64,000 nt of DNA from an uncultured Armatimonadia bacterium (GCA_963749155.1 CAVVLO010000001.1:768001-832000), one strand, 5' to 3'; positions 45,377 through 62,224 are shown, counted from the stretch's first letter. Numbers and translations: made by a program. The notes: a model not told the origin generated them from the sequence alone.

Positions 45377-47804
45377 CTAGATTGGTCGTTCGAGAAGGTC
45401 GCATTCCACGACCTTGTTGCCTGTTATACGGAAGGTCTTCACTTCCTGGGGAGCAAAAGTTGCGCTCCAGGTAAGGGCACTATGGGGCAGCAGGAAGACG
45501 GCTTCCTTCGCCTGACCTGCAAGCTCCACCGCCCGGATTATAAGGCTTTCGCCGTCTTCCGACTGCTTTATGGCCGGGATGGCAATATGGTCGGCCGAGA
45601 TAGTGATGAACTCCTTGGCAAGTGGCAGATAGCCCTCATGGCTGGATTCGAGCAGGAAACTCGGCGGGCTGTTAAGCTCTAGGGCAAGCTCGGGCACCTT
45701 GCCCTCTACAAAGTCGCCAGCATGCGGCACCAGGCGCCAGGTGAAATCATGACGACCCTGGTCGATATATTCATTCCATTCGTCCGGCTGCAGCTTGTAG
45801 GGATCGTGCCAGGCATAGACAGTGCTGCGAAGCAGAGTTATACGTAGCGCCTTGTCGTCTGCGTCGTAGCCATACTTGCCATCATTCAATATCGCAAAGC
45901 CGGCGTTACGACCTTGGGTGTCGCAACCGGAGAGATCGAGCCAGGCGTGCATCGGTTCCTCTTCGCCGTTCAGGACGCGCTCGCAGAAGCCATAACTCAT
46001 ACTCGAGTGAAGCTCTGGCTGCTTGATTCCGAAGGGCACGGTCAGCTTGAAGGCCTTGAACTGGTCCTGCACCTCCAGGCTGGTCTTTACTTCCACCCAG
46101 GGCTGACCTGCCCACAGACAGATACGCTGGATGAGGGTGGAAGCGCCCCACCTGGCGCGCGTGCGCACCACGGCGCGGATTGGGCCAGCTTCTTCAAGCA
46201 CGGCCTCGAAGCCCTCGAAGGCGCCGACTAGCTGGTCGTACTTCTTCAGTTCATGGCTCCAGGTGTCGGAGGTGTCATGGAAGACGTCGACACTCTGAGG
46301 GGCCGAAAGCAACTCGACTCCGGTGCGTTTGTCCAGCACCTGAGCAAGGCCGCCGGTCTCGGGTGAGATCGTCACGCGAAGCCAGGGGTTCTCCAGCCGC
46401 TCGGTGGTAGCGGTCAGGTCGGACTGGACAGGCGCAGGGTTGCCCCTGACCAGCCTGAAGGAGCGCCAGCCCCAGGCGGGCAGTTCGGGCTCGAAGCACA
46501 GCTCCATCCGGCCCAGCGCGCTCCTTTGGCGGCGGCGGGATTGCGCTGATAGGGCACTTCGTTGCCAAGCTCGTCCAGCACCTGGGCTTCGAGGCTCCAG
46601 GTGAGATCGCACGCCATCGGGACAGTGGTTTTCCAGCCGTGGGGATTGAAGCAGACCAGCGTGGCGCCTTCACCTGAGGTATCGAGTCTGGCGGCGATTG
46701 CCTGCTGGGCGAAGTTCTGGGTTTCGGAAGCGATATGCAGCGCGTAGCCTGCGGCGGCCTGAACGTCCTCGTAGGCGGGCTTGATGCTGGTGCCGGCCAG
46801 GATATCGTGGAACTGGTTGAAAAGCATCCGGCGCCAGGCTTCGGTAAAACGCTCAAGTGGATAAGGCTTCAGCTTGAGGCGGAAGGCCAGCGCGGCCCAT
46901 TTCTCGGCGGTCGCCAGGGCTTCTTCACACTGGCGATTCAGGTGTTTGGCCAGCGTCGTTACCGAATAGCAACCGCGCGCGTGGTGTTGAAGCTCCTCAG
47001 GGACACGCGGGAAGCTCGTTTCGCAGGCCCGTAAGAGACGCGAAGAAAGCCTCCAGTGTGCTACACAGAGGGGCAGGCGCCTCAGGGTCGGCGGCGATAT
47101 CGTGGATGGCCTCGATATTGTCGATGGTCGGCCCTCCGCCGTGGTTGCCTACGCCGTAGAAGCAAAGCGAATCCGGGACGGTCGGCATCCACTCGGACGC
47201 GGTATTAATCCACTGGGTAAGCGCCTGCGCTCTCCCAGACGCAGTAATGGTTGGCGGCGCGGCAACCGATAACTGTAGAACCATCGGGCGCTATCCACTG
47301 GAAAAGGCCCGCGGGCAGCGTCTTCTCGTAAGGCCCTGGGCGAAAGAAGATGTAATAATCCAGGCCTGATTTCTTGAGCAACTGGGGAAGCATCCCATCA
47401 TGGCCGAAGGAGTCGACGTTGTAGCCAACCTTGGCCAGCTTGCCAAACCGAGACATAAAATAGCCCTGACCATAAAGCGCCTGGCGCGCGAAAGCCTCAC
47501 CGCTCGGGACATTGCAGTCAGGCTGCACCCACCAGCCCCCTGCAAGCTCCCAGCGGCCTTCGGCGACGCGCTGGCGGATCTCTTCAAACATTGCGGGGTC
47601 GGTCTGTTCGACCCACCAGTAGAGCGCGGCCTGGGCCGAGGTAAATTTGAAATCCGGGTACTCCATCATCCGGTCGAGGGCCGAGCGAAAACTGGAGCGA
47701 GTGGTTTCCATCCCTTCGGGCCAGCGCCATAGCCACACCGGGTCGATGTGAGCATTGCCGATCATATGGATGGGGCGCCCTTGGGCTTCTTGCTGGTCTG
47801 CCAT
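45377..47804 (-). CDS. GH38 alpha-mannosidase (several frameshifts, near 47230, 47020, 46830, 46545)
   Basis: IGNAHID.VWLW.W, GGWWVQPDCN.P.GE...RQ, DSFGH, YGVGNHGGGP, RGCYS, FNQFHDILAG, NDGKYGY, LLRS, DQG.H.F, K.SED. Confidence 0.9.
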
Positions 47805-47950
47805 TGGAACCTCCTGACTGGTAAAAAAAGATACGGGGCAAAGGTTGGCGAAGAAGGGCATATCTCCTGCAGCAGGAAGCAGGAGGAGCGCCTCGAACCA
47901 ATAAAATCCTGACCAAGAGTAATTGTCACCATCAAGGAGGACTGAGAAAA

Positions 47951-49363
47951 ATGGCACAGAACGGTTGTGTGGGCGTCATTATCGGCAACAGGGGTTTCTT
48001 CCCCAGCTTCCTGGCCGTCGAAGGGCGCAAGGAGATACTGAGTCTGCTGGAGAGCAAGGGCATCAAAGCCATTATCGCCCCGGCAGAAGCCACCCAGCAT
48101 GGCGCGGTAACGAGCTATGAGGACGCGCAACTCTACGGCAAGCTGTTCAGAGATCACGCCGAAGAGATTGACGGCATCATCATCAGCCTGCCGAACTTCG
48201 GCGATGAGAAATCCATCGCGCAGACCATCAGGTTCAGCGGCCTCAACGTGCCGGTAATGGTGCAGGCCTATCCGGATGACCTGGCCAAGCTTGACCTGGC
48301 CAACCGGCGGGACAGCTTCTGCGGCAAGTTCTCGGCTTGCGCCAACCTGCGTCAATACGGGATAGACTTCTCCCTTACCGACCTGCATACGGTAGACCCG
48401 AAGAGCGAGGCTTTCGCAAGAGAGCTTGACTGGTTTATGGGCGTCTGCCGCGTCACAAAGGGCCTGCGCAACTGCCGTGTTGGCGCCGTGGGCGCGCGTC
48501 CGGCCGATTTCGACACTGTCCGTTACAGCGAGAAGATTCTAGAGGCCAATCGTATCTCGGTAGAGCCGATTGACCTCTTCGACCTGTTCGGCAAGGTGAA
48601 CAAACTGGGCGAAGACGATCCTGCGGTCCAGGCCAAACTCGGCGCGCTGCGCGGTTATTGCAATATCGCGGGCGTGCCCGACCACGCGCTGATGCGGATG
48701 GCGCGCTTCGCCACGGCGCTGTCGGCCTGGGTAGAGTCGAAAGACCTCGACTGCATCGCGCTCCAGTGCTGGTCAGCCATCGAGGAGAACTACGGCATCA
48801 CCCCGTGCGCGGTAATGAGTATGATGAGCAACTCGCTCATCCCCGCCGCTTGCGAGGTAGACGTTACCGGCGCCCTCAGTATGTACGCGCTGCAACTTGC
48901 TAACGGCACTCCCGCCACGATTCTTGACTGGAACAACAACTACGGGCACGAGCCTGACAAGTGCGTGCTTTTCCACTGCAGCAACGCGCCGAAGGTCTTC
49001 TTTGACGATCTGAAGATGAGCGCGCAGGACATCCTGGCGGATTCTGTCGGACGCGAAAACAGTTATGGCACCTGCGTTGGACGTTTCGTGCCGATGCCTG
49101 TCACACTGGCGCGTCTCACCACCGATGACGTCAGCGGCGAGATCCGCACCTATCTGGCCGAGGGCGCGCTGGTGGATGATCCGCTCAACACCTTCGGCGG
49201 GGTTGGAGTATTGCATGTCGAGGATATGCAGGAGCTGCTGCGTTATTGCTGCGTCGAGGGTTTCGAGCACCACGTGGCTATGGGCGGCGGGCGAGTTGGC
49301 GATATGCTGGCCGAGGCCTTTGGAAACTACCTGGGCTGGGATCTCTACTACCACAAAGGGTGA
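47951..49363 (+). CDS. L-fucose/L-arabinose isomerase family protein
   Basis: LPNFGDE, RRDSFCGK.S, QCW, ACE.D..G, FHC.N, GFEHH; AAGGAGG SD. Confidence 0.88.
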   Translation: MAQNGCVGVIIGNRGFFPSFLAVEGRKEILSLLESKGIKAIIAPAEATQHGAVTSYEDAQLYGKLFRDHAEEIDGIIISLPNFGDEKSIAQTIRFSGLNVPVMVQAYPDDLAKLDLANRRDSFCGKFSACANLRQYGIDFSLTDLHTVDPKSEAFARELDWFMGVCRVTKGLRNCRVGAVGARPADFDTVRYSEKILEANRISVEPIDLFDLFGKVNKLGEDDPAVQAKLGALRGYCNIAGVPDHALMRMARFATALSAWVESKDLDCIALQCWSAIEENYGITPCAVMSMMSNSLIPAACEVDVTGALSMYALQLANGTPATILDWNNNYGHEPDKCVLFHCSNAPKVFFDDLKMSAQDILADSVGRENSYGTCVGRFVPMPVTLARLTTDDVSGEIRTYLAEGALVDDPLNTFGGVGVLHVEDMQELLRYCCVEGFEHHVAMGGGRVGDMLAEAFGNYLGWDLYYHKG

Positions 49364-49410: not shown

Positions 49411-49554
49411 ACTTTGCGATTTCCGGTGATTTGCCGTAAAGTCTAGTGAATTGGGGGATAAACCAAAGCCGCGTTATGGTTTATACTTGGACAGAGGGCC
49501 GGAAGGCCTTCCGCTAGAGCAGATTTCTAAAGGGAATAATCGAGGTGCTTTTCG

Positions 49555-51111
49555 TTGCAACCGCTGGAGCTTAGGCCTGGCATCTATGCCGTAGGCGCGC
49601 TGGACTGGGATCTCAGCCAGATGCACGGCTATTTCACGCCGCGCGGCGTCACCTACAACTCTTACCTCCTTGTCGATGAGCATATCACCCTCGTCGACAC
49701 GGTGAAGCACTACAAGTTCGACGAGTTGCTGAGTCGCATCAGCAAGGTCGTAGATCCGTCCAAAATTGATTATGTGGTGGTCAACCACGCCGAACCCGAC
49801 CATGGCAGCGCGCTGCCGAAGGTGCGGGCGCTGCTGCCGAACGCTTCAATCTTCTGCAGCAAGCGCGGGGTGGATGTCATCACCGGCAACTACCGGCAGG
49901 ACTTCGGCCTGAAGCCTGTGGCGGACGGCGAGACGCTTTCACTTGGCAAGCGGTCGCTGGTCTTCAAAGAACTGCCGATGCTGCACTGGCCGGACAGTAT
50001 GGTCAGTTATTGTCCCGAGGAAGGGATACTCTTCTCCAACGACGCCTTCGGCCAGCATATGGCGACTGCGGAGCGCTTCGATGACGAGGTCGGGTGGAGC
50101 GTCACCAGCTACGAGGCCGGCAAGTATTACGCCAATATCGTGATGCCCTTCGCTCAGCAGGTGCAAGGGGCGCTGGCGGCGCTTGGAAGCCTGCCCATCA
50201 GTCTGATCTGTCCCTCGCACGGGGTTATGATACGCAGCCACATCGCCGAGATGCTTGAAAATTATCGCAAGTGGTCGAGTTTCGAGGCGGAAGAGTCGGT
50301 TGCGCTTATCTACTACTCGATGTGGGGCGCCACCAAGCTGCTGGCGGAGGCCATCGCCGATGGCGTGCAGGCCGAGGGGCTGCTTGTTACGCTGCGTAAT
50401 ATGGAGAGCTACCACTATTCCGATGTGATGTATGATGTACTTGTGAACCGCGGCATCGCGCTGGGCTCGCCCACGCTCAACAACGGGATGCATCCCGAGA
50501 TGGCCTCTATGACGGCTTATCTGACGGGGCTGCGGCCGCGCGACCGGGTAGGGCTGGCCTTCGGGTCTTACGGCTGGGGCGGCCAGTCGGTCGGGATGCT
50601 TCAAGAGGTTATGACGCAGCTCAAGTGGGAGACTCCCCTCGAGCCGCTGAAGATAAAATGGAAGCCGACGGAGGAAGACCTCCAGGCGGCGACCGAGGCG
50701 GGCAGGGCGCTTGCCCAGCAGGTAAAAGCCTGGCCCAAGCCGAATACGTTGCCCACTATAACAACCACTCAGGAGGTGGCTGGTATGAAGTTGTCCGATT
50801 ACCTGATTTCGCCCGAACACGAGGGCAAAGAGAAACACGTACCCCAGCTTTCACTGACAGACGGCGTGCTGGAGGTGTGGGTAGGCAAGGAAGTCGCTCA
50901 TCCCAACACAATCGAGCATCACATCTCGTGGATCCAGGTCTATGCGATCCCCGAGAGCGGCCCGGTGAAGTTCGTCGCGAGGTTCGACTTCGGGCCGACA
51001 CTGGCTCAGCCGCACGTGACGGTGCCTGTAATGACCGAGGGCATCAAGGGCTATATCGCGGTGGAACACTGCAATATCCACGGGCTGTGGGAGAACTCAA
51101 TCGAGGTCTGA
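49555..51111 (+). CDS. fprA: flavodiiron protein (FprA) in frame with a C-terminal neelaredoxin-type superoxide reductase; may be two genes (second start 50785)
   Basis: TYNSY, HAEPDH, LHWPDS, SNDAFGQH, PSHG, flavodoxin SMWG.T/GSPT/FGSYGWGG; then EKHVP, HP.T.EHHI.WI, HCNIHGLWE. Confidence 0.9.
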   Translation: MQPLELRPGIYAVGALDWDLSQMHGYFTPRGVTYNSYLLVDEHITLVDTVKHYKFDELLSRISKVVDPSKIDYVVVNHAEPDHGSALPKVRALLPNASIFCSKRGVDVITGNYRQDFGLKPVADGETLSLGKRSLVFKELPMLHWPDSMVSYCPEEGILFSNDAFGQHMATAERFDDEVGWSVTSYEAGKYYANIVMPFAQQVQGALAALGSLPISLICPSHGVMIRSHIAEMLENYRKWSSFEAEESVALIYYSMWGATKLLAEAIADGVQAEGLLVTLRNMESYHYSDVMYDVLVNRGIALGSPTLNNGMHPEMASMTAYLTGLRPRDRVGLAFGSYGWGGQSVGMLQEVMTQLKWETPLEPLKIKWKPTEEDLQAATEAGRALAQQVKAWPKPNTLPTITTTQEVAGMKLSDYLISPEHEGKEKHVPQLSLTDGVLEVWVGKEVAHPNTIEHHISWIQVYAIPESGPVKFVARFDFGPTLAQPHVTVPVMTEGIKGYIAVEHCNIHGLWENSIEV

Positions 51112-51130
51112 TGCGCCCGCAGGCAGGCCA

Positions 51131-51170
51131 CAAAGAAGCGCCGGGGCCAACGCTCCGGCGCTTTTGTTTT
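51131..51170. terminator. intrinsic terminator between convergent genes
   Basis: GAAGCGCCGGGGC-N4-GCTCCGGCGCTTT + TGTTTT. Confidence 0.75.
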
Positions 51171-51174
51171 GGCG

Positions 51175-52567
51175 CTAGCGACTGAATTTGCGGACCAGAC
51201 AGATCATAAAGAGGGAGGTAAGGACCAAACCCAGGACCGCCTCGACAGAGGCCAGTTAAGCGCCCAAAGCCAGCCATGTGGCGTAATGTCACCATAGCCG
51301 AGGGTTGCGAAGGTAATGACGCTATGAGTAGAGAGCAGTCCAAAGGGAATGGACTGGTCGTTCAGATACCATCCACCTGAAGGCCCTTGATTGCCTGCAG
51401 GTACGGCGAAGAAGACCACGGCGCAGAGCGCCCACAGGGCTACTAGCCACCACTGCTCGCCATAACCCGCGACCCACTCAAGCAGTGCACTCCCAGAGCA
51501 CGTTTCACCGGGTGGCCGCCTTCTGTTCAGCAAGGGCCCTATCCGTTGGCAGTAACGCTCCCGGTAGAAGAAGTTGCCCGCGCGTTCATAGTCTCCCTGC
51601 TGCTGGAAGGCGAGCTTGAGTTGGCGGTAGACAGCGGCGCAGGAGGACCAGGTGGGGCGAGAGTATGGCGTGTGTGTCGCAGGTCGTAGGCAGTCCAGGC
51701 AACGTCGTCTTTGGCCAGTAACTCATCGCCCAGCATATCGCTGGAGTCACCCTCTGTAGGCAGGCCGAACCTGCAGTTGGCCAAGTTGGTCGTGGGGTGC
51801 ATGTCTGTACCACTGAGAAGCACCCCGTGTAGGTCGACATCTCTAAGATCCGTAGCAGTGTCGCCACCGTGAGTCCTGCTCGAATCCGTCCGGGACGGAC
51901 GTGATCAGGCTGTGTAAGCGAGTAAACCGGAGATCAGCCGACCTCAGATCGGCCCCTACGAACGAAGCGCCGGAAAGGTCAGCCCAGAGCAGCTCAACCT
52001 CGCGAAGATCAGCTCTCATGAGCTGAGCCCCCGACAGGTTGGCGGAATAGGCGTGAGCATGGTGCAGGATCGCTTTCGTCAAGCTGGGCTCCTGACAGGT
52101 CTGCAGCATTGAATGCAGCGTAGGACGCTTCTGTGCCATCTTAGCGCTGCGCCTCGCAGGACGGCCTCGTCGAGACTGGCACCCGACAGGTCCGCCCCGT
52201 TCAGCTTGGCCGCAGACAGATCTGGCCTCGGATAAGTCCGCGTTTCCGAGATTGCGCCTTCGTTAGGTCAGCCCACGGCAGATTGAGCGTTCTGGAGTTG
52301 GGCATCAGAAAGATGGGTCTCTCGGAAGGACGCGCCTCATCGAGACATATGCCGACAGCGACAGCTTGCTCCAGCCGTTCCTTCAGGTCGATCCGGCTTT
52401 GCCTCGGAGTGGAACTCGCACGTCGGCGTCGGGCTCGGTCGCTCCGCTCCAAGCGGAAGGCCACATAAACTATGCCTTGGTCTAGGCTCGTGCTCGTAGC
52501 CATACTGACACCTCGGCCCGTCGTAGCCTTCCGGCACATCGTTGAGATACTCTGTCTCTTCGCTCAC
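51175..52567 (-). pseudogene. heavily frameshifted pentapeptide-repeat protein with C-terminal K-channel-like (Ion_trans_2) domain
   Basis: GGAGG+GTG at 52567; fragments with ANLSGAQL.RADLR..ADLSGA..GADLR.ADLR repeats; SVITFATLGYGDI.P; EAVLGL...LF...LVRKFSR stop. Confidence 0.7.
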
Positions 52568-52640: not shown

Positions 52641-55600
52641 ATGAGATTGCTGCTGGTGTTGTTGCTCTGCTGCCTGGTTACGCTGCCCTGCCTGGCCTAT
52701 GAACGGATGGCGGCGTGGCAGGATAGCCTCGTCGAGATGGCCGATGGCTTCCCCTACGCGGCGCTGGTGACCTATGACAACTCGCGGCCCGACCAGCCGA
52801 TGTGGCTGCAGCAGGTGACGCTGGGCAAGCTGCTTGTCGGGCTCAAAGTGGGCGAGCGAGTCGAGTGGTGGAAAGAGGCCGAGGTGACAGTCCTGCCCGA
52901 GGGCCTCGTGGCAACCGGGAGCCTCGCCGGGGCGAAGCTGACGCTCTGCGCTGCTGCCGCTGATGACCGACTGGCGAGACCTCGCCTGGCAGGGGGGAGC
53001 GCTCTACGAGCTTACAGTCACTGGGGCGCCCGCCGGGGCGAAGCTGCTGCTGGCCTGGGGCGGCACCAGCGTGGACGATGTGCTGCTGACCGATGGACGC
53101 TACAGGGCGATCCAGGATGAAGGCTTCCCCGCCGCCAAAGGCGATGAAGTGACAATGTCCGGCGACTGCGCGCTCATCAGGCAGAGTGGCTTCAAGGCGA
53201 TTGTTGCGGCCTTCCGCGTGCCTGGGCAAGCCCCGCCGTAGCCACCGACCTGCCTGGCCTGCCCAAGCTGGAAGGGCCTGTGGCGCTGGTCGAGATTACC
53301 CCTCCCAGTGGAAAACTGAGCTTGCTTGCGACCTTCGCCGAGAGCCAGCAGAACGCGCTCAAGCTGGCCAACCTAAGCCCCGAGGAGGAGCTTGCCAAAA
53401 CTCGCGATTACTATTCTTCGCTGGTGGCTTCCGCCGTCTGCCAGACAGGCGATAAGGCGATTGATGAGTGCTTCACCTGGGCGGCAATCAACCTCGACTA
53501 CAACTGGTATCGCGGGATCGGCTGGGTAGAGTCCATCCACCACTGGGTGACGATGTTCACGCAACTTTTCATCCCCGCCGCCGACCACCTGGGGCAGGCC
53601 GACCGCAGCAAAGCCTGCCTTAAGGTCCATCTCGAGCAGGCTCTTGGGCAGGATGGGCGCATGCTGAGTATGAACCTGACCAAGAAGCCGTGGACGGCTT
53701 TCGGGTGGAATCAGTATTTCTTCGATAGCCTGGGTCATTATCTGCGCTGGACGGGGGATGTGGGATTCGCCAAAGAGGCACTGCCAGGCGTCAAGCGGAT
53801 ACTGGCCAACACGCGGGAGCGCTTTGATGCGGACGGCAACGACCTCCTCGGGTGGGAGCAGCAGATAGGCTATCAGGAAGATTATGTGATGGCGCCGCGA
53901 GATTCCGCCTCGGCGACGCTGAACTGGATCCGGATGAACGAAGTGGGCGAACTGGTGGCGCGCCTGGCGGGCGATGGGCAACTGGGGCTAAAGTGCAGGC
54001 AGAGCCGCGAGCGCGCGGAGCAGGGGCTGAAGGCTTCCCTCTATGACGGGGAGCTGGGCAGGTTCGGGGATTGGCGCGATGGGCTGGGGACGCTTCGCCA
54101 TGAGGGCGCCTGGCACACTTTCGGCTGGCCGGTGAAGCAGGGGACCCTGACGCCAGTCGAGGCCTGGGCGGGGCTCGAGCACTTTCGCGCGGCTTTGATG
54201 AGCGAACGCGGATTGCCATATCTCTCGCAGCGCTTCCCTGGCCATCCCCCTCACACAACAGGCTGCCAGGAGGGAGACCTGCAGGCGCTGGATGTGGCGC
54301 TCTGCTTCGCCAAAGCGGGCGATCCGGACCAGGCAGCGAGCATCATAAAGGTGTTCGCGGACTTCACGATGGCCGCGCCCTGCCTGGGCAGCTTCACCGA
54401 GACGATAATCCCCTGGCCGACGTGGTTCTCGCCGCCCGCAGCGCTGTATGTAGAGGCGGTTACAGAGGGCCTTTTCGGTGTCAAACTGGACAGGCTCGAG
54501 GGTCTACTGACAGTTTCGCCCTCCCTGCCCGAGGCCTGGCCCGAGGCAAAGCTGAGCCTGCCGGATTATGACCTTTCTATCGCCCAGGCAAAGGGGCGCT
54601 ATTCGCTGGAAGTGTCGGCAGAGGGCTTCGAGCGCGCGCGGCTGGCGCCCTGGCTTCCCCCTGCAGTGGTGAAGTCGGTCAAATATAACGGCCAGCGCGT
54701 ACCCTTCGCCGTGGAGGCAGGAGTTGGCCGGATTCAGCTAATTGTCGAACAGCCTTTCTCTGGGAAGGCGCGCCTTGAGGTGGAGTGTTCGCCAGTTGAT
54801 GCTGTGAAGCTGGCGCCGACCGAAGCTTGCCCGGGGGAAGAGCTTTCAGTGGCGCTGCCAGGATGCCAGCCGGTGGAGCTGTATGACCCGGCAGGGGTCT
54901 TCGAGAGCAGCCGGCTGGAGAAGGGCAAGCTCAGCGGGCGGCTGCGCGGCAACCTGCTGGACCTGGCCCACGAATACGGGCAGATGGGGAAGGCGGTCTT
55001 CTCCGACAGGACCCCGCTGGTGCTGGTAGAGCAGGAGGGGGCCCAGTACTGGGTGGCGCTGCCGCTGCGACTGGCTCCGGCGGTCGAGGTGCGGCCTGAC
55101 TGGGATGTGCGGCGCAACAGTGACGACCCCGAGGCCGGTTATACACTGGGCCTCACTGTCGCAAACAGGACCAGTGCTTCACTTGACGCGCTGGATATAA
55201 GGTGGCTTGGCGAAAGCTTCCACAAAAGACTCTCCGTCATACCGGGGAAGGAAGCGCGCCTCGAGTTGCTGCTTTCCTGGGAGCAACTTGCTGCAGCCTC
55301 GCCAGGAGTGAATACACTGGAATGGAGCGTACCGGGCACGCGCTACGGTGGCACTGAAGCGGCCTGGGTGAAACGTCCAGCCGAGGAGCTGCCGGCGCTT
55401 GCCGAGGACTGGGCAGGGCGCTGTGAGCCGGTGAAACTGCCCGCCGAGAGCTTGCGTAGCAGTAAGGACTGGCGGCAATGGCGAGAGTTCGACGATGGAG
55501 GGCATCAGCCCTGGGCCAGCTTGAAGGAGCCCCTTGAAGGCCTCGTCGCCGATGAACAGGGGCTGGTGAAGCTTTCGGCCTCGAACGGGGTCGCCTTCGA

Positions 55601-56492
55601 ACTCGAGGCAGGCAAGCTCGCGCCGGTGGGTTACCAGTGCGGGCAGCCAGCCTTGAAAATTCCGGTGGGCAGGCAGTCGGCGAAGCTGTATCTGCTGGTG
55701 GCAGGACTTCTCACCAACGAGGACAGCTATGCCCCAGTGGCGCGCGTAACGGCCCAATCTGGGCGCATAACGCTCGCCAGTCGGGTGCTGCACTTCCCCG
55801 GCGATCTGGACTGGTGGTATCCAGGCTCTCGAGTCGGCGAGTATGCGAGCTTCGGCACAGGCTGGAGCAAGGCAACCGCCCTCCAACTGCCCGAGGCGGT
55901 CGCCTCGGTGATCGAGCTGGAGTTGCCCTATCCAGCGCAGGTAGACTGGGTAGAGATAAGCGCGCTCGCAGAACCTGCAACACTAGGAGTGCTGGCTGTA
56001 AGCACTTTTTGCGAACGGCAACAGACCATCGGGCAAAAGGACTGGCTGGCTGGCGGGACGCTGCTGGTGGAAGATTTCGAAAGCGGGACGCTGGAGGGCT
56101 GGACAACTGCTGGCGAGGCCTGGACGGTTGGGAAGTCTTATCAGGTGCACGCCAGGCACGGTCAGGGAGAGTACTTTGCCGATTCTCTTGGCAGAGGCGA
56201 GACTTTTACTGGCGCGCTGACCTCGCCGCCTTTCACAATCACGGGCAAACGGCTCACCCTGCTTGCGGATGGCTGGCGAGCTGGCGGGCTTAACTGGTTC
56301 GCGCTGAAGGACGCCGAGACGGGGGAGGAGCTGCTGCGCATCGACCCGCCCGACCACACGGGCGAGTTTGTGCCACTTGGTGCCGATGTGACAGCCTTTG
56401 AAGGGCGCAAGGTGGTCTTCGAGGCGGTGGACGGCGCAACGGCTACTGCCTATGCCTGGCTCGCTTTCGACAGGTTAAGACTGGAAGACTAA
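52641..56492 (+). CDS. large secreted putative glycoside hydrolase with (alpha/alpha)6-like core and C-terminal CBM-like domain (frameshifts near 52950 and 53235)
   Basis: Signal peptide; Y.RWTGD..F, D.DG..L, GLFGV......L.V.P.LP..W; C-terminal DFESG.L.GW...G.AW...TG.LTSPPF. Confidence 0.65.
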
Positions 56493-56546: not shown

Positions 56547-57555
56547 TTATTCTACCGGGGCCGGAAGCGTCTTGCCGGCCGCGGCGGATTTAACGGCGGT
56601 CTCGAGCAATGCGATGACCCGGCGACCATCCTCGGCGGTGACCTCCAGCGGGGTGCCCTTCGACAGGTGGCTCGCGACGTCGCGATAATAGGCGTGCCAG
56701 TCGCTGTCCTTGTACTTCACCTTGGCGGTCATCTTGATGCCGTCTACCTCGCGCAGCAACTCGAACTCGCCGCCCCAGCTATCCACGATGGCGCCCTTGG
56801 TACCCAGGATGCGCCAGCGCGGCTTGGTGGCCATTGCGATGTTGCTGGTCTCGAGTGAGGCGACTGCGCCATTCTTGAACTTGACGATGGCTTCGACGTG
56901 ATCCTCGTTGGTCACATCGTTCCAGACCAGCTTGTGCACGAAACCAGTTATGGACTCCATCGGGGCTTCGATGAAGTGGAGCACCCAGTCCGAGAAATGC
57001 GCGCCCCAGTCATACATCGCGCCGCCACTTATTTCCTTGCTTGGCGCGCCACCAGGTGCCCGGATGGCTGTAGCCGCCGAAGAAAGCCTCGACCTTGAAG
57101 ACGTCGCCGATGAGGCCTTTCTTGATGACCTCCCGGATGGTCACGAAGTCGCCATCCCAGCGCCGGTTGTGGAAGACTGAAAGCATTACGCTCTGCTTCT
57201 TTGCCTCGGCGATCATCTTGTCGGCTTCAGCCACGGTAATGCACATTGGCTTCTCGAGGATGACATGCTTGCCGGCCTTAAGGCACTGCAGGGCAACAGG
57301 GCCATGCAGGTTGTGAGGCAGGATGAGGATGCAGGCGTCTACGGCAGGATCGGCAAGGCACTTCTTCACGTCGGTGTAGAACTTGCTTGCAGGGAAATCC
57401 TCGAGGGCGACGGCCTCGCGCGCGGCGTCTACATCGCAGACGGCGGCAACTTTGAACACGCCGGTGGCTTCGGCAGCCTGACCATGCAGACGCCCCATAT
57501 TGAAGGCGCCTCCGTAACCGATGAGGGCAACTCCGAACAGCTTCTTCTTTGCCAT
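56547..57555 (-). CDS. Gfo/Idh/MocA-family oxidoreductase (frameshift near 57040)
   Basis: IGYGG, PH.LH, GKHV.LEKP, HNRRWD.DF, then SGG.MYDWG.H..D; AAGGAG SD. Confidence 0.9.
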
Positions 57556-57616
57556 AACTGGACACTCCTTCGAAGGCGATTGTGGAACCGGGGGCGAGAT
57601 TCGGCGGGGCAAGCCC

Positions 57617-57666
57617 CTTTCCTCCAAGGAAAGGCGCTTTCCTGCAAGGAAAGGCGCTTTCCTGCA
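57617..57666. repeat. 20-bp palindromic tandem repeat (2.5 copies)
   Basis: CTTTCCT(C/G)CAAGGAAAGGCG x2 + CTTTCCTGCA. Confidence 0.85.
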
Positions 57667-57671
57667 GACAA

Positions 57672-58271
57672 TCAAGAAGCTGGATGCAGGGAAATTGTAA
57701 CGTTCAGGACTTGCTCGAGCAGACCTTGCTTCAACTCACCGCCCATAAGGTTATAAGCAAGCGAACTCTTTCCAGAGGCGGTGATTACACATTGACCTGG
57801 GACAGGAAAGCTGACTTCGAGCTGCTCAACGGCGGCGTTGTGAGGCCGGTCGAGGCCATCAGCCAGACGAAGCAGAGCAGCAAGGGCCCTGACTCGCTGC
57901 TGGTCATCGGGAGAAAGGTCGGCGTAGAGCTTGTGGGTTAAGGCAGGTTCCGACTTGCGGTGATACCGGGCCAGGTTGGCAAGCAACTGCCGCTGGTGGT
58001 CGGAAAGGCCTGGCCAGTCGGCTGCCAGGATGAGGTCGCGCGCGACTTTGTTGTGGGCGGATTCACTTAGAGGCACACCGATATCGTGTATAAGAGCGGC
58101 GGCTTCGAGCAAGGCCAGGTCGGCTGCTTCAAGACCGAGCTGGGCTTTGAGCTGGCTAGCGAGTTGCATGGCAAGCTGGGCAACCTGGCGCGAATGCCGC
58201 TCTTCGGCACCACTGGTAAGCAGGAGTTGCTCAGCGCCGGCAGTAAGCAGGTCGTCAGCAAGGGGCGTCAA
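57672..58271 (-). CDS. stand-alone HD-domain protein homologous to the Ppx/GppA C-terminal domain
   Basis: H...VA.LA..L, LL.AAA.IHDIG, H.K, LARYHRK, LAALLRLADGLDR.H; TTG start with AAGGGAG SD overlapping the upstream TGA. Confidence 0.8.
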   Translation of the reverse strand: MTPLADDLLTAGAEQLLLTSGAEERHSRQVAQLAMQLASQLKAQLGLEAADLALLEAAALIHDIGVPLSESAHNKVARDLILAADWPGLSDHQRQLLANLARYHRKSEPALTHKLYADLSPDDQQRVRALAALLRLADGLDRPHNAAVEQLEVSFPVPGQCVITASGKSSLAYNLMGGELKQGLLEQVLNVTISLHPAS

Positions 58272-59166
58272 GTGAGATGCTCCCTTACTTCGGCAGCCAG
58301 AGTGCCTTCTGCAAGCCGCCTCAGGACGACAAGAGCCTGGGCAGTATAGTCCCGGCGCGCGAGCATCAGCCTCGGCAGCGGCCATAAAGAGCGCAGCCTG
58401 GTTGGTTCGGGCAGCTTTGGCGCGTTCCTCGAGGCGAGCGCGCAGCACTTCCCAGTCCCGGGCCAGTCCCATCAGTTCCTGCAGTTCTGCTACCTCGTTG
58501 CGCAATCGTCCGGCTGCGGCCGATAGGACCGGCAGCCAGGGTTCGAGGGTGTATTTGACCCTTTTGGCGAGAAGGCGCCGCTCGTGGAAGGCCACCGCAT
58601 CCACTTCCAGTAGAGCCAGGTCAAGGCCATCGAAAAGACGTAAAAGACGTTTGGAAAGCTGCCTTCGGATGGCACTTTTTAGAGACGGAGCCTTCTTTTC
58701 CTTGCGCAAGAGGCGACAAAGGGCATGAATCCGGGGCGAAAGCTCCTGTTCAGCAGTGGAAAGGGCTTCCGGAAGGCGGCAAAGGGCAGCGTTGCGTTCT
58801 TCTCGAAGGGCCAGGTCAAGGCCTTTCAAAGCCCTTTTCAAGTCAGGATGGGAGGCGACAAGCTCGGTCAGATGGCTTTTCATAACGTCCTGGTCGCGGA
58901 TGGGGCCAAGTCCATCGTTTAAAGTCTGCACGGGTCGAAGAGCGAGGGTGTAAGCCGCTTTGGGCGCCCAGCAGCGAGCAAAGCGAAGCACCTCGCGCAA
59001 ACGTTTGGAAGCAACCCTGGGCATCGTGGATGCCTTCAATATCGCCTGCACTTGCCAGCACAAGCTGGTCAGAAAGCTGAAGCAAATGGGTCTCGAGTGA
59101 GAGCGCTGCAGCTTTACTGGCATCCAGACCAGGACTTAAGCCTTTGGTCTTTAACGGTTTGGCCAT
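58268..59166 (-). CDS. CHAD-domain (polyphosphate-binding) protein (two frameshifts, near 59020 and 58360)
   Basis: EGIHD.RVASKRLRE, LG.IRD.DV, FHERR...KR.KY.LE, LQE.MG..RD; repaired C-terminus ends at TGA overlapping the HD start. Confidence 0.85.
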
Positions 59167-59176
59167 AAGTCTTCCC

Positions 59177-60547
59177 TCAACAGGTGACGTGGACCAGCAG
59201 GGCCTTGGTGTCACGAGAGGAGTTAAAGGCATGAATGGCCGCGGGTGTGGGCAGGGCAGTAAGCTCTATGCCTTCCTCCTCAAGCAGGTGGCGGGCTTCC
59301 TCTGTGACACTCAGGCCATCGTTGTAACCAGTGCCAACGAAGACGCGCCTGGGGCGCGGCTCGAGCACGCGGCGGACTTCATCCGGGCCCAGCATATGAG
59401 AGGTGCCGAACTGCTTGCGCGAAAGCTTCTTGTCTCTCTTCTTTACGGTGCCATCGGCGAAGACGTAGAAGTCTTTTTCAACCAGCTCCCCGTTAACCTC
59501 AATGCGCCCAAATCCCGCCGCATCGAGGCGCGGGTAGGGGGCGACATGCTCGCCGAAATCGTAGGTAGCGCCGGGGACAGGTTCTCCGAGTTCGAGGCGT
59601 AGCTGTACCATAGCGCCAAGCGCCACGGCATCTTCTCCGAGTTGGGCGCGCTCCAGGAGGACCTTTTCTGGAAGCGCTATTGGATCGGCTTGCAGTTGGG
59701 CCAGGAGCCGGGGCAGCATATAGTCACCGATGGCTTCCCAGATACCCCCTCCCAGCACGATTACATGGGGATCGAAACAATGACGCAGGTCCATAAGCGC
59801 CATCCCAAGCTTATGGGTGGCCCTTTCGATGAGCGGCAATATAAGAGGATCCTGCTCTGCGATGCCGGCGCGAAGGAGATCGCCAAAGGCGTGAGGCGCC
59901 TTGCTGGTCAGCGCGGCAAGGCCCGGATGGCTTGCTTTGGTGAAGGCGGCGCGAAGGTCGCGTTCGAGAGCCCATTTACCGGTATAGGCTTCGACGCAGC
60001 CCTTGTTGCCACAGGTGCATTGGGCGCCATCAGGCTCCACACAGATATGCCCAAACTCGCCCGCCATACAGGTGGCGCCGATTATGGGCCGGCCTCTAAG
60101 TACGATACCGCCCCCGAGGCCGGTGCCGATAAATACGCCAAGAACCAGCTCCTGGCCAACGCCTGCGCCAAGCCAGGCTTCAGCCAGGGTGCCCAGGTTT
60201 ACATCATTGCCAACGGTAACCGGAACACCAAAAACATCGCTTAGCTGCTGGCCAAGGGGCAGGCGGTCAAGTTCCAGATTGTGAGCGGCTTCGACGACGC
60301 CAGTGGAGGGATCCACCAGACCAGGCATCCCAACGCCTAGCCCTCGAAGGGGGCGATGAGTAACTTCCTGTCTGGCGAGAAAATCCCCAAGGGTCGAAAT
60401 CAGAGCGGGAGTAAAGCCTTCCTGGCCCTTGGGCGTAGCCCACCTGGTCGAGGCCAGCTTGGCGCCCCCTCGGTCATAGAGGTTGCACAGGGTCTTCGTG
60501 CCCCCGATATCAAGTGCCAGGTACAGAGGCGATTCGGATTGCGGCAT
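59177..60547 (-). CDS. ROK-family sugar kinase fused to a C-terminal Mth938/AAMDC-like (DUF498) domain
   Basis: DIGGTK, G.GMPG, NDVN, GTGLGGG, AGEFGH, CTCG..GC.E; then FG.I.VNG....D..V, SH.L...EV, VGTG....L.V..EA, LPT..AI..FN, HVTC. Confidence 0.88.
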   Translation of the reverse strand: MPQSESPLYLALDIGGTKTLCNLYDRGGAKLASTRWATPKGQEGFTPALISTLGDFLARQEVTHRPLRGLGVGMPGLVDPSTGVVEAAHNLELDRLPLGQQLSDVFGVPVTVGNDVNLGTLAEAWLGAGVGQELVLGVFIGTGLGGGIVLRGRPIIGATCMAGEFGHICVEPDGAQCTCGNKGCVEAYTGKWALERDLRAAFTKASHPGLAALTSKAPHAFGDLLRAGIAEQDPLILPLIERATHKLGMALMDLRHCFDPHVIVLGGGIWEAIGDYMLPRLLAQLQADPIALPEKVLLERAQLGEDAVALGAMVQLRLELGEPVPGATYDFGEHVAPYPRLDAAGFGRIEVNGELVEKDFYVFADGTVKKRDKKLSRKQFGTSHMLGPDEVRRVLEPRPRRVFVGTGYNDGLSVTEEARHLLEEEGIELTALPTPAAIHAFNSSRDTKALLVHVTC

Positions 60548-60595
60548 CCGGGCTCCTCCAAGCCGCGCGTTTATCGTTTGGTGCAGTGTTTTACT

Positions 60596-60623
60596 ATTAT
60601 AAGCGGCTGGCAGGCTTTGGCAA
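60596..60623 (-). promoter_or_regulatory. sigma70 promoter for the ROK-CHAD-HD unit
   Basis: minus strand TTGCCA-16 nt-TATAAT. Confidence 0.7.
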
Positions 60624-60626
60624 GTG

Positions 60627-60656
60627 AAAAGGGGCCGGCCTGGGAGGGCCGACCCC
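60627..60656 (-). terminator. intrinsic terminator after the TMK-like pair
   Basis: minus strand GGGGTCGGCC-N6-GGCCGGCCCC + TTTT. Confidence 0.7.
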
Positions 60657-60680
60657 GGAAAGTCAGGTTATATCGGAGGC

Positions 60681-61529
60681 TTATTTTTCCATAAACTCGG
60701 AAAGGAAAGCCTTTAGCGCATCGAGCATAGAAGTTTTTTCTGCGCCGACAGGGGCTTCGTTGTCCTCGTAATCACGCGGGCCTGTCATCATCGGGGCCTG
60801 GTCCACGAGGCGGGCGATATCAACACTGCCCGGCACCATATCTGCAACTACCGGGGCAATGCCTCGTTTGAGTTCGCCAAAAACTTCGCTAACACTACAG
60901 GTCGCATCTATTACGGTGCCGTTATACTCGGCTGACAGCCGGTCATATTCAGCGAGCAGAAGAGACTGATATTTGACGAAAGCCTCAAACATCGTACGCT
61001 CGTGGAAGATGTCCATCCCCGATTCCCAGTAGTCGAAACCACCACTTGCAAGCACGCGCGGGACCAGAGCTTCGAGGGTAGGTTTCAGGTAGAAGATGGC
61101 TTCGGGTTTGAGGGCGAAGCCATAAAGCCGCTTCAGCCACTCTCTATCCAGGCCCCGGACTGCAGACCGGGCCATCAGCGAGTAAATATAGCGGTCTGTC
61201 AAGACCACGAAACCTGCGCGCAAGGCAGGGATGACCTGATTCTCAATGCGGTCAGCGAAGTCAGTGGCATAGAAAAGACATTGAGTTTCGCGGCCCATTG
61301 TATGGCCTTGTTTGGCTTCCTGGATATGCTGTCCGGCAAGCACTGAACGAGTAAAGCCCGTATCGAAGACCGCCAGACCCGAACTTTCGAGCCAGCGTTT
61401 GACTAGCTGTGCCTGGGTGCTGCGGCCAACTCCGTCAGTGCCCTCCAGGGCGATAAGCTTGCCTGGGAACTCCTTTTCGGTAAGGCCTGGGAAGGGCGAA
61501 CCATAGGTCTCAGCCTTCATTGTTACCAT
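60681..61529 (-). CDS. thymidylate-kinase-fold protein with degenerate Walker A (PPK3 regulatory-subunit-like)
   Basis: LIALEGTDGVGRSTQ (Arg for Lys), YATDFADR.E..V.PAL.AG..VL.DRY.YS..AR. Confidence 0.75.
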   Translation of the reverse strand: MVTMKAETYGSPFPGLTEKEFPGKLIALEGTDGVGRSTQAQLVKRWLESSGLAVFDTGFTRSVLAGQHIQEAKQGHTMGRETQCLFYATDFADRIENQVIPALRAGFVVLTDRYIYSLMARSAVRGLDREWLKRLYGFALKPEAIFYLKPTLEALVPRVLASGGFDYWESGMDIFHERTMFEAFVKYQSLLLAEYDRLSAEYNGTVIDATCSVSEVFGELKRGIAPVVADMVPGSVDIARLVDQAPMMTGPRDYEDNEAPVGAEKTSMLDALKAFLSEFMEK

Positions 61530-62224
61530 CTCCCGGCCCGTAACTGATGATGGAATCCTTGGGGCGCTTCAGGAGGCCCTTCAGATGAGGTTTCACCAGT
61601 TCGCGCACCTGCTCCTGCTGCTGAGAAATGGGCAAGGTGCCATCAATAACCGTCAGGCCGTATTCTTCTACCATCCTGTCATATTGTTCGAGGATGCGTC
61701 CCTGGAAGAGCGTAAAGCTCTCGTAAGGGTCATCCGAGAGGCCCACGTCCAGCCCCGCTTCGTACCATTTGAGCTCAGGTCGCCCAACGAGGATGCGCTC
61801 GAGGGCAACTTCCAGAGGCACACGGAAATAGAAAGCGATGGTGGGCTTTACGCCAAGGGAATAGACAGAGCGCACCCAGTCGGGATCGCAACCGCGCGCT
61901 ACGTCTCTGGCGAAGGCTGTGAACATATAGCGGTCCGCAAGCACGGCCGCGCCGGCCTCAAGAGGCGGCTTGATATTCCGCTCGGTCCGATCCGCGAAGT
62001 CAGTCGCGTGAATAAGGCTAAAGGTGAGCGGAGTCAGCAGGTGGCGTTTTTTGCCACGCGAGGTGGTGCGTTTCGACCAGCGGCGAGGAGTTCCACTCGC
62101 TGAAAAAAACGCTGTAACCTTCGGAATAGAGCCACTTGTAGAGAAGGTCGCACTGGGTACTCTTGCCCGAGCCGTCGATGCCCTCCACGATGAAGAGCTT
62201 GCCCTGGTATTCGCTGGCTTCCAT
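61510..62224 (-). CDS. thymidylate-kinase-fold protein with intact Walker A (PPK3 catalytic-subunit-like; frameshift near 62075)
   Basis: IVEGIDGSGKSTQ, EWNSS.LV, TP.TFSLIHATDFADR.E, LADRY..TAFARD..RG, YEAG.D. Confidence 0.78.

Follow-up and report, generated by a model that had tools for sequence, protein, structure and literature searches.

A 64,000-nucleotide stretch of the genome of an uncultured Armatimonadia bacterium (GCA_963749155.1 CAVVLO010000001.1:768001-832000; hereafter, the window) carries, at positions 57672-62224 of its minus strand, five co-oriented genes encoding, in order, a cPPK3-like and an rPPK3-like kinase subunit, a ROK sugar kinase fused to an MTH938 domain (ROK-MTH938), a CHAD protein and a free HD domain resembling the C-terminal tail of the exopolyphosphatase Ppx. 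We propose that the locus as a whole would function as a polyphosphate (polyP) store-and-spend module. Its PPK3 core is already known, and the new part is the ROK subfamily represented by the third gene, whose members probably have a functional tie to polyP. More tentatively, and with somewhat less than even confidence, we predict that this subfamily is a second, independently evolved and zinc-containing lineage of polyP glucokinases with genes in PPK1, PPK2 and PPK3 loci, occasional fusions to Ppx and, in many members, an MTH938 domain as a possible polymer tether; in Armatimonadota, Planctomycetota and Chloroflexota it would replace the classical enzyme, PpgK. A literature search, whose coverage excluded subscription journals, returned no description of a polyP-linked ROK or of a ROK-MTH938 protein, and the terms ROK, Mth938, COG1940, COG1504, DUF498 and NagC do not appear in the text of the supplements covered for the report of the Sulfolobus PPK3 enzyme (PMC12995831), the neighbourhood figure of which is an image that could show one.

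A ROK subfamily encoded beside polyphosphate genes

In a profile search of 1.84 billion proteins, 42 of the best 150 representatives carried an MTH938 domain, and the ROK-MTH938 fusion therefore constitutes a family, named members of which include Latescibacterota and Armatimonadota proteins. Membership of the ROK subfamily was set at 330 bits or more against a reference alignment (A5), and in trees built with FastTree and quick IQ-TREE runs, 24 lower-scoring ROKs fell beyond a branch with a support of 99. Linkage was defined as the presence of a polyP gene within 5 kb, with neighbours labelled by profiles built here, 13 of which labels were spot-checked in Pfam. By this measure, subfamily members are linked to polyP genes in 43 of 58 loci from three phyla, where they lie beside PPK1, PPK2 or PPK3, as against 1 of 44 loci of other ROKs, these controls being mostly paralogues from the same genomes and the single linked control deriving from a locus fetched through its PPK3 pair. 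Within the class to which our genome belongs, 31 of 34 subfamily loci are linked, 24 of them to a PPK3 pair, and of the three unlinked loci two are at the end of a contig. Linkage was likewise found in Planctomycetota (7 of 9 loci, one of which has PPK2, Ppx, PPK1 and SixA and is without PPK3), in Chloroflexota (3 of 8, all from one lineage in which the ROK gene immediately precedes ppk1 and ppx lies further upstream) and among ROK fusions on metagenome contigs (2 of 7, after excluding L140 as a likely duplicate of G020).

The identity of the linked partner varies considerably: subfamily genes accompany PPK3 pairs, the combination of PPK1, PPK2, Ppx and SixA (G264), Ppx alone (G005), ppx and ppk1 in a single orientation with ROK directly before ppk1 (G531, G544 and G557) or a Ppx-tail HD gene (G004, G011 and G013). 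Because of this variation, the subfamily appears tied to polyP and not to one kinase. We also identified seven sequence clusters in which a ROK domain is fused to Ppx, one of them named from Anaerolineae, with the ROK part falling in the wider subfamily; these fusions (P0040 and P0206-P0211; ~640 amino acids) place a kinase and an exopolyphosphatase catalytic domain in one chain. Among the profile matches there are, in addition, tandem ROK-ROK fusions of 650-690 amino acids (P0035-P0037, P0045, P0055, P0069, P0088 and P0122).

We further compared the distribution of the subfamily to that of classical PpgK (NF045942). Of the 79 genomes of the class, 34 encode the subfamily, 33 of which also have PPK3, and 10 encode PpgK, all of them PPK3-positive and none with the subfamily. 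The 48 PPK3 genomes thus comprise 33 with the subfamily and 10 with PpgK, exactly one of the two being present in 43, both in 0 and neither in 5, and among the 31 PPK3-negative genomes one has the subfamily (a ROK gene beside ppx) and none has PpgK. Absence of the subfamily from PpgK genomes was assessed from best scores of at most 288 bits in the eight that were rescored and from the tree in G022 and G024. The Fisher value for this exclusion is 4.6e-7, a figure that does not count independent events. In Planctomycetota (32 handles), where the comparison has little power, PpgK occurs in 2, neither of which is among the 8 with the subfamily. The pattern in the class suggests that PpgK and the subfamily ROK share a common job. 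Collectively, the gene linkage, the Ppx fusions and the exclusion of PpgK provide real comparative support for the ROK protein as a putative spender of polyP.

The phosphate donor of the ROK protein

The ROK-MTH938 gene (59177..60547, minus strand) is a single intact frame of 456 codons in which Pfam places a ROK kinase at residues ~8-319 (197.5 bits) and an MTH938/DUF498 domain at residues ~337-456 (46 bits). An AlphaFold2 model of the protein (pLDDT 87) has two domains joined by a loose linker; the first adopts the ROK kinase fold, with ATP kinases as its closest solved relatives and a further match to Mlc, and the C-terminal tail matches MTH938 (1ihn) and PH1505 (2cyj). When ligand roles are assigned after PMC10031466, the metal, catalytic, sugar and zinc ligands are intact (D13, N114, D115, T142, E164, H167, C177, C179, C184 and E186), such that the zinc site, the metal and catalytic Asp and the sugar-binding N, E, H and E of group B ROK kinases are all present. 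The catalytic and sugar-binding residues are retained in 32 of 32 linked rows of the alignment.

Linked proteins additionally share a set of basic residues, with Lys at position 18 and Lys or Arg at positions 35 and 191 (basic in 30, 31 and 32 of the 32 linked rows, respectively; K18, R35 and K191 in the locus protein). In 24 control ROKs, position 35 is Ser in 12 and position 191 is Gly or Ala in 16. Where the S. griseus and T. thermophilus kinases have a conserved Gly after their last sugar ligand, the subfamily has Lys or Arg; it also has its own conserved surface residues (R255, H256 and E271) and an NDVNxGT motif. In PpgK, 6 of 6 sequences carry Arg where the subfamily has residue 35, and we take it that an arginine on strand 3 of the PpgK structure 1WOQ binds phosphate. 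Elsewhere, polyP binding has been placed at the phosphate-1 region with a lysine there (PMC4252912), and the characterised polyP glucokinases are described as being without the CxCGxxGCxE motif (PMC6406325).

Based on these data, we suggest the following mechanism. The first two genes of the locus would encode a heteromeric family-3 polyP kinase with a catalytic first subunit and a supporting second subunit, which, by analogy with the Sulfolobus acidocaldarius enzyme SaPPK3, would build polyP when ATP/ADP is high and regenerate ATP from it when energy charge is low. CHAD and the free Ppx-tail HD protein would bind or process the polymer, binding by CHAD being known from the literature and the role of HD being our own conjecture. 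The ROK protein would act as a hexose kinase, with glucose as its most likely substrate, and draw its phosphate straight from polyP, either as the only donor or in addition to ATP; it would thereby fill the job that PpgK performs in other bacteria from a different, zinc-containing branch of the ROK family. Direct use of polyP as the donor is the weakest step in this scheme, and we consider the odds for it to be even.

The MTH938 tail would be an optional accessory, and one may speculate that it serves as a basic tether to the polymer. We regard it as accessory on sequence grounds because it has been lost from several linked members and because its motifs have decayed in most fusions, GTSH and HVTC each being kept in 12 of 35 and decayed in two thirds. 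MTH938 as a general polyP-locus domain was considered and rejected: 72 of 80 metagenome loci with MTH938 have no ROK, and in those 72, most of which lie on short contigs, the queries used gave no match to PPK3, CHAD or HD. A scan of genome contigs with the MTH938 domain as a single protein gave no match, and a search of the ESM Atlas returned DUF498 clusters only. Stand-alone MTH938-like genes do occur, both in the genome of this locus (G000:C5:554796-555227) and in a second genome (G001:C48:66302-66658) that encodes PPK3 alongside this free MTH938 while having no subfamily ROK and no PpgK.

A number of observations weigh against polyP as the direct donor or against a general association of the subfamily with polyP. 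ROK-MTH938 scores 42.8 bits against the PpgK model NF045942, whose cut-off is 250; it possesses the CxCGxxGCxE zinc motif, unlike PpgK; the position of the PpgK lysine in phosphate-1 is missing; and its closest solved relatives use ATP. Basic residues of the K18/R35/K191 type are shared by subfamily members without linkage and by some of the controls, and the ROK domain is net acidic in linked proteins as it is in controls, such that net charge fails to tell the two groups apart. Support is weak both for the deep branches of the ROK trees and for branching within the subfamily, into which two low scorers fall. Linkage is missing from 15 of the 58 subfamily loci, among them full fusions that lie on long contigs (G520, L141 and L142). 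No ROK was found in the 80 closest GTDB PPK3 loci (the best 80 of at least 579), and 15 PPK3 loci from other classes of the phylum are without a subfamily ROK, one of them holding an unrelated ROK; the ROK protein is hence not a general PPK3 partner. As to the exclusion pattern, the 10 PpgK genomes represent about two lineages (family f2 and genera g17/g19), or approximately two events, and for this reason the exclusion is suggestive and no statistical proof. Neither enzyme is seen in five PPK3 genomes of the class, one of which has a ROK-MTH938 gene cut at a contig end, and the 15 PPK3 genomes of other classes are without PpgK. Finally, in 9 of 9 loci the true PpgK gene has no polyP gene linked to it, and linkage is therefore no mark of polyP glucokinases. 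A predicted complex of the ROK domain with the rPPK3-like subunit scored 0.01 and was not used as evidence.

The zinc motif and the nearest structures, both typical of ATP-dependent group B kinases, are what favour the best surviving alternative, according to which the ROK protein is an ordinary ATP-dependent sugar kinase whose ADP is recycled by the polyP kinase, giving an indirect form of polyP-driven sugar phosphorylation. SaPPK3 strongly prefers ADP over ATP (PMC12995831), 33 of the 34 subfamily genomes of the class have PPK3, and the exclusion of PpgK would be accounted for as well. On the other hand, ATP is freely diffusible and its recycling would therefore not depend on genes being linked, the subfamily has links or fusions to Ppx with no kinase near (G005 and the ROK-Ppx fusions), and Lys or Arg stands in place of the Gly after the last sugar ligand. 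Since each genome examined has 2-6 ROK paralogues, an ATP glucokinase is also probably available elsewhere. We judge this alternative possible but rather unlikely.

Less probable is that the ROK protein is a sensor of a sugar or sugar phosphate, or a kinase of some other substrate such as an amino sugar or polyol, that regulates or feeds polyP turnover. ROK folds do serve as regulators, as the Mlc matches illustrate, sequence does not settle the substrate, the subfamily has conserved surface residues of its own (R255, H256 and E271), and a Mesh1-like HD_4 gene adjoins ROK in many relatives; the protein nonetheless has no DNA-binding domain, its metal, base and sugar ligands are invariant, and the exclusion of PpgK suggests a common job. 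Slightly more doubtful still is that ROK is unrelated to polyP and a mere passenger from an ancestral operon. The linked loci derive mostly from a single class of related genomes, a quarter of the subfamily loci have no such linkage, and a promoter-like site lies between ROK and the kinase pair here, yet linkage recurs in three phyla with differing partners and gene orders, it outlasts loss of the PPK3 pair, and Ppx gene fusions exist.

To our knowledge, thousands of ROK proteins are annotated as glucokinases and presumed to use ATP, polyP use being attributed solely to PpgK enzymes, which are short and free of zinc. If the subfamily does use polyP directly, donor choice would have evolved twice in the ROK fold, the sequence rule by which polyP glucokinases are recognised would be incomplete, and sugar-degrading uncultured bacteria of sediments and digesters would possess an unrecognised route from polyP to glycolysis. 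If MTH938 does tether the polymer, this would be the first ligand for the MTH938 domain family, whose function was not established in the literature that we found.

The PPK3-type kinase pair and its companion genes

The cPPK3-like gene (61510..62224, minus strand) encodes a putative catalytic subunit of ~237 amino acids with the Tmk fold and contains one assembly insertion at ~62074; the rPPK3-like second subunit (60681..61520, minus strand; 279 amino acids) has a start that overlaps the stop of the former gene. The original prediction had read these two genes, both matched by Pfam Thymidylate_kin, as a PPK3-like pair misannotated as dTMP kinases, and this reading was borne out by sequence, profile and phylogenetic comparisons. 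Among solved structures, both proteins are closest to S. tokodaii cPPK3 (PDB 2plr/5h70), against which the C-terminal piece of the cPPK3-like protein scores 155.6 bits (best true Tmk, 35.1) and the rPPK3-like protein 144.9 bits (2plr; best true Tmk, 53.9), and in profile comparisons to 2plr the scores are 248.6 and 210.5 bits, respectively, with no Tmk above 65.8 and 78.8 bits. A tree of 80 rows was built from 17 Tmks and a selection among the 133 A and 129 B sequences; in it, all Tmks fall on one side of a branch with a support of 100, and the cPPK3-like protein groups among A subunits and the rPPK3-like protein among B subunits; this tree holds no Sulfolobales rows, the tie to which runs through PDB 2plr. 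The closest named cPPK3 matches are Armatimonadota records. We conclude that the pair very probably belongs to the PPK3 family, as an additional member of a published group, and we expect it, with equally high confidence, to have PPK3 activity. That the two proteins would instead be thymidylate kinases or other nucleoside monophosphate kinases, as the Pfam matches and the lack of an assay of any bacterial PPK3 in the literature covered might suggest, is extremely improbable given that both miss the TIGR00041 cut-off of 83.25 bits (78.7 for the rPPK3-like protein and 37 and 40.5 for the two cPPK3-like pieces), lie outside the Tmk clade, have EWNSS (A) and DTG (B) in place of the dTMP-binding EP motif (EPGG in true Tmks) that is kept in the genome's own tmk and in most of 16 tmk genes from relatives, and have Sulfolobus orthologues that form a heteromeric polyP kinase without dTMP kinase activity (PMC12995831).

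At the residue level, the cPPK3-like subunit retains the Walker A Lys, the DRY motif and basic residues K58, K59, R60, R148 and K152; its rPPK3-like partner has Arg for the Walker A Lys, retains DRY and has lost the basic residues of the lid. Columns 51, 59, 60, 148 and 152 are basic in 77-100% of A subunits (n=133) and in 0-8% of B subunits (n=129). In Sulfolobus, the inactivity of rPPK3 is ascribed to loss of the DRX arginine (PMC12995831). This arginine is present in the locus rPPK3-like protein and in 127 of 129 bacterial B subunits, 124 of which 129 have Arg replacing the Walker A Lys. Its retention lowers our confidence in strict identity with Sulfolobales rPPK3 and leaves the PPK3 family assignment as it was. 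Because the second subunit appears to be disabled differently, the pair provides a test of the published explanation for rPPK3 inactivity, and it contributes a copy from a mesophilic bacterium to an enzyme family whose assays have so far been confined to Sulfolobus. Divergent PPK3 pairs were also noted (L051:7435-8847, L052:5720-7118, L273 and L278); the second subunits of L051 and L052 keep the Walker A lysine and branch near the family root, and one has DLY for DRY, like archaeal rPPK3.

PPK3 is present in 48 of the 79 genomes of the class and in 26 of 151 in our phylum sample, and Data S1 of PMC12995831 lists 1 Armatimonadota genome with PPK3 among 15. In two genomes of the class, a PPK2-like gene adjoins the PPK3 pair (L245:2963-3814 and L264:9240-10079). 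Around the 80 closest GTDB PPK3 loci (the best of at least 579, many on short contigs), we found the second subunit in 80, Ppx or its tail in 43, CHAD in 42, SixA in 34 and PPK1 in 7, consistent with the linkage to CHAD and Ppx-type genes that the original prediction had expected. Its suggestion that such a combination is undescribed in bacteria stands only in part: operons joining PPK3 with PPX, SixA and CHAD and scattered across bacteria had already been predicted (PMC12995831), and what seems to be missing is a biochemical test of a bacterial copy. Its statement that the window holds five co-oriented genes and no PPK1, PPK2 or full Ppx was correct. Elsewhere in the genome, which comprises 4.17 Mb in 7 contigs (completeness 100%, contamination 5.87%), we identified a canonical tmk (G000:C2:937403-937975; 171.9 bits), one PPK2, one Ppx consisting of the catalytic domain only (322 amino acids) and three other ROK genes, and a search of it for PPK1 gave no match. 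The adjacent sugar-catabolic region did not hold up as support, since flanking genes differ from genome to genome, and a tie to these sugar genes or to a flanking penicillin-binding protein was rejected for lack of conservation.

Downstream of ROK lie genes for a stand-alone CHAD protein of ~298 amino acids (58268..59166, minus strand; 83.7 bits to CHAD on its middle piece, with assembly insertions at ~59018 and ~58358) and for the 199-residue Ppx C-terminal HD domain (57672..58271, minus strand; 73.6 bits to Ppx-GppA_III and 41.3 to HD), whose TTG start overlaps the CHAD stop. Intact CHAD orthologues of 302-305 amino acids are found 3' of ROK in relatives, and free Ppx-tail HD domains recur in both PPK3 and ROK loci. 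The metal-type residues of the HD protein (the H, HD, H and D positions) are retained in an alignment that also holds 12 further stand-alone copies and 4 Ppx tails; with the genome's own Ppx being without such a tail, the free domain may either complete this short Ppx in trans or itself be an enzyme. In many relatives, a gene for a RelA/SpoT-hydrolase-like HD_4 protein of the Mesh1 type, absent from the window, lies on the opposite strand between the second PPK3 subunit and ROK (for example L040:7482-8042, L044:5084-5626, L048, L055, L056, L234, L253, L254, L256 and L259), a possible link of the locus to (p)ppGpp. Other relatives encode beside ROK, often with a metallophosphoesterase near, proteins of ~500-530 amino acids with a Ppx-tail-like N-terminal part and a C-terminal CHAD (L272:4805-6391, L273:103-1605, L276, L277 and L233:3173-4708).

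The cPPK3-like gene is interrupted by one frameshift in the assembly and the CHAD gene by two. Short-read contigs have one base fewer at 62074 and 59018 in 3 of 3 DNA runs and at 58358/9 in the 2 of 2 runs that cover it, the best of these runs possibly being the source sample and the other two deriving from different studies; the three frameshifts are thus insertion errors of the assembly. Pseudogenes or programmed frameshifting were ruled out on the grounds of these missing bases and of intact orthologues, and an apparent CHAD-HD fusion (a raw 483-residue frame) is an artefact of two of the insertions. A break in the adjoining oxidoreductase gene (57040/57043) likewise lacks its extra base in short-read contigs, and further apparent frameshifts in ordinary genes were noted at 56547-57555, 45380-47975 and 49540-51182. 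With so many single-base errors, broken genes of this genome need to be checked against reads.

A terminator-like hairpin followed by a T run (60631..60656, minus strand; 10 pairs, 9 of them G-C, a consensus match only) lies 3' of the kinase pair, and a predicted sigma70-like promoter (60596..60623, minus strand; 11 of 12 consensus matches) lies 5' of ROK. As these separate the kinase pair from ROK, the five genes may form two transcription units, with ROK, CHAD and HD apart from the pair; overall, 3 promoter-like sites were found versus 1.4 expected and 8 terminator-like sites versus 6.8 expected. Downstream of the HD gene, positions 57616-57665 hold a short imperfect direct repeat of three similar units, 40 bases of which are skipped in one related contig. 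At 53280-56492 (plus strand), a 1070-codon open reading frame without a Pfam match gives the impression, from its sequence, of a large glycoside hydrolase with C-terminal beta domains.

Comparison with known systems

The closest counterpart of the kinase pair is SaPPK3, formed by Saci_2019 (cPPK3) and Saci_2020 (rPPK3) and encoded in a sixA-ppx-cPPK3-rPPK3-CHAD operon (PMC12995831). In common with SaPPK3 and S. tokodaii cPPK3, our locus has a tandem Tmk-fold pair in identical order with CHAD near, a canonical tmk elsewhere and no PPK1 found, and conserved basic residues in the first subunit that are missing from the second. It differs in that bacterial second subunits keep the DRX arginine and replace the Walker A Lys by Arg, in the presence of ROK-MTH938 and a free Ppx-tail HD in place of ppx and sixA, and in a genome that also has PPK2.

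The ROK-MTH938 protein shares its fold and its catalytic and sugar-binding residues with PpgK (Arthrobacter 1WOQ, Anabaena All1371 and Methylomonas polyP-Glk), the strand-3 Arg of which aligns with basic residue 35 of the subfamily and the distribution of which is complementary to it in the class. By contrast, PpgK is ~250 amino acids in length, is without the zinc motif or helical insertion, has another phosphate-1 motif and is encoded away from polyP genes. The closest solved relatives, the group B ATP-dependent kinases S. griseus GlkA (3vgk), E. faecalis 2qm1, T. thermophilus 3vov and P. shigelloides NagK, have the same zinc site, metal Asp and catalytic Asp, and a phosphate-binding Thr/Lys is present as in NagK (PMC10031466); the subfamily departs from them in its NDVNxGT motif, Lys/Arg at 191, basic strand 3, optional MTH938 tail and linkage to polyP genes. 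Lastly, the C-terminal domain has the basic stretch and the GTSH and HVTC motifs of the DUF498 proteins MTH938 and PH1505, from which it differs in being fused to a kinase and in the decay of these motifs in the majority of fusions.

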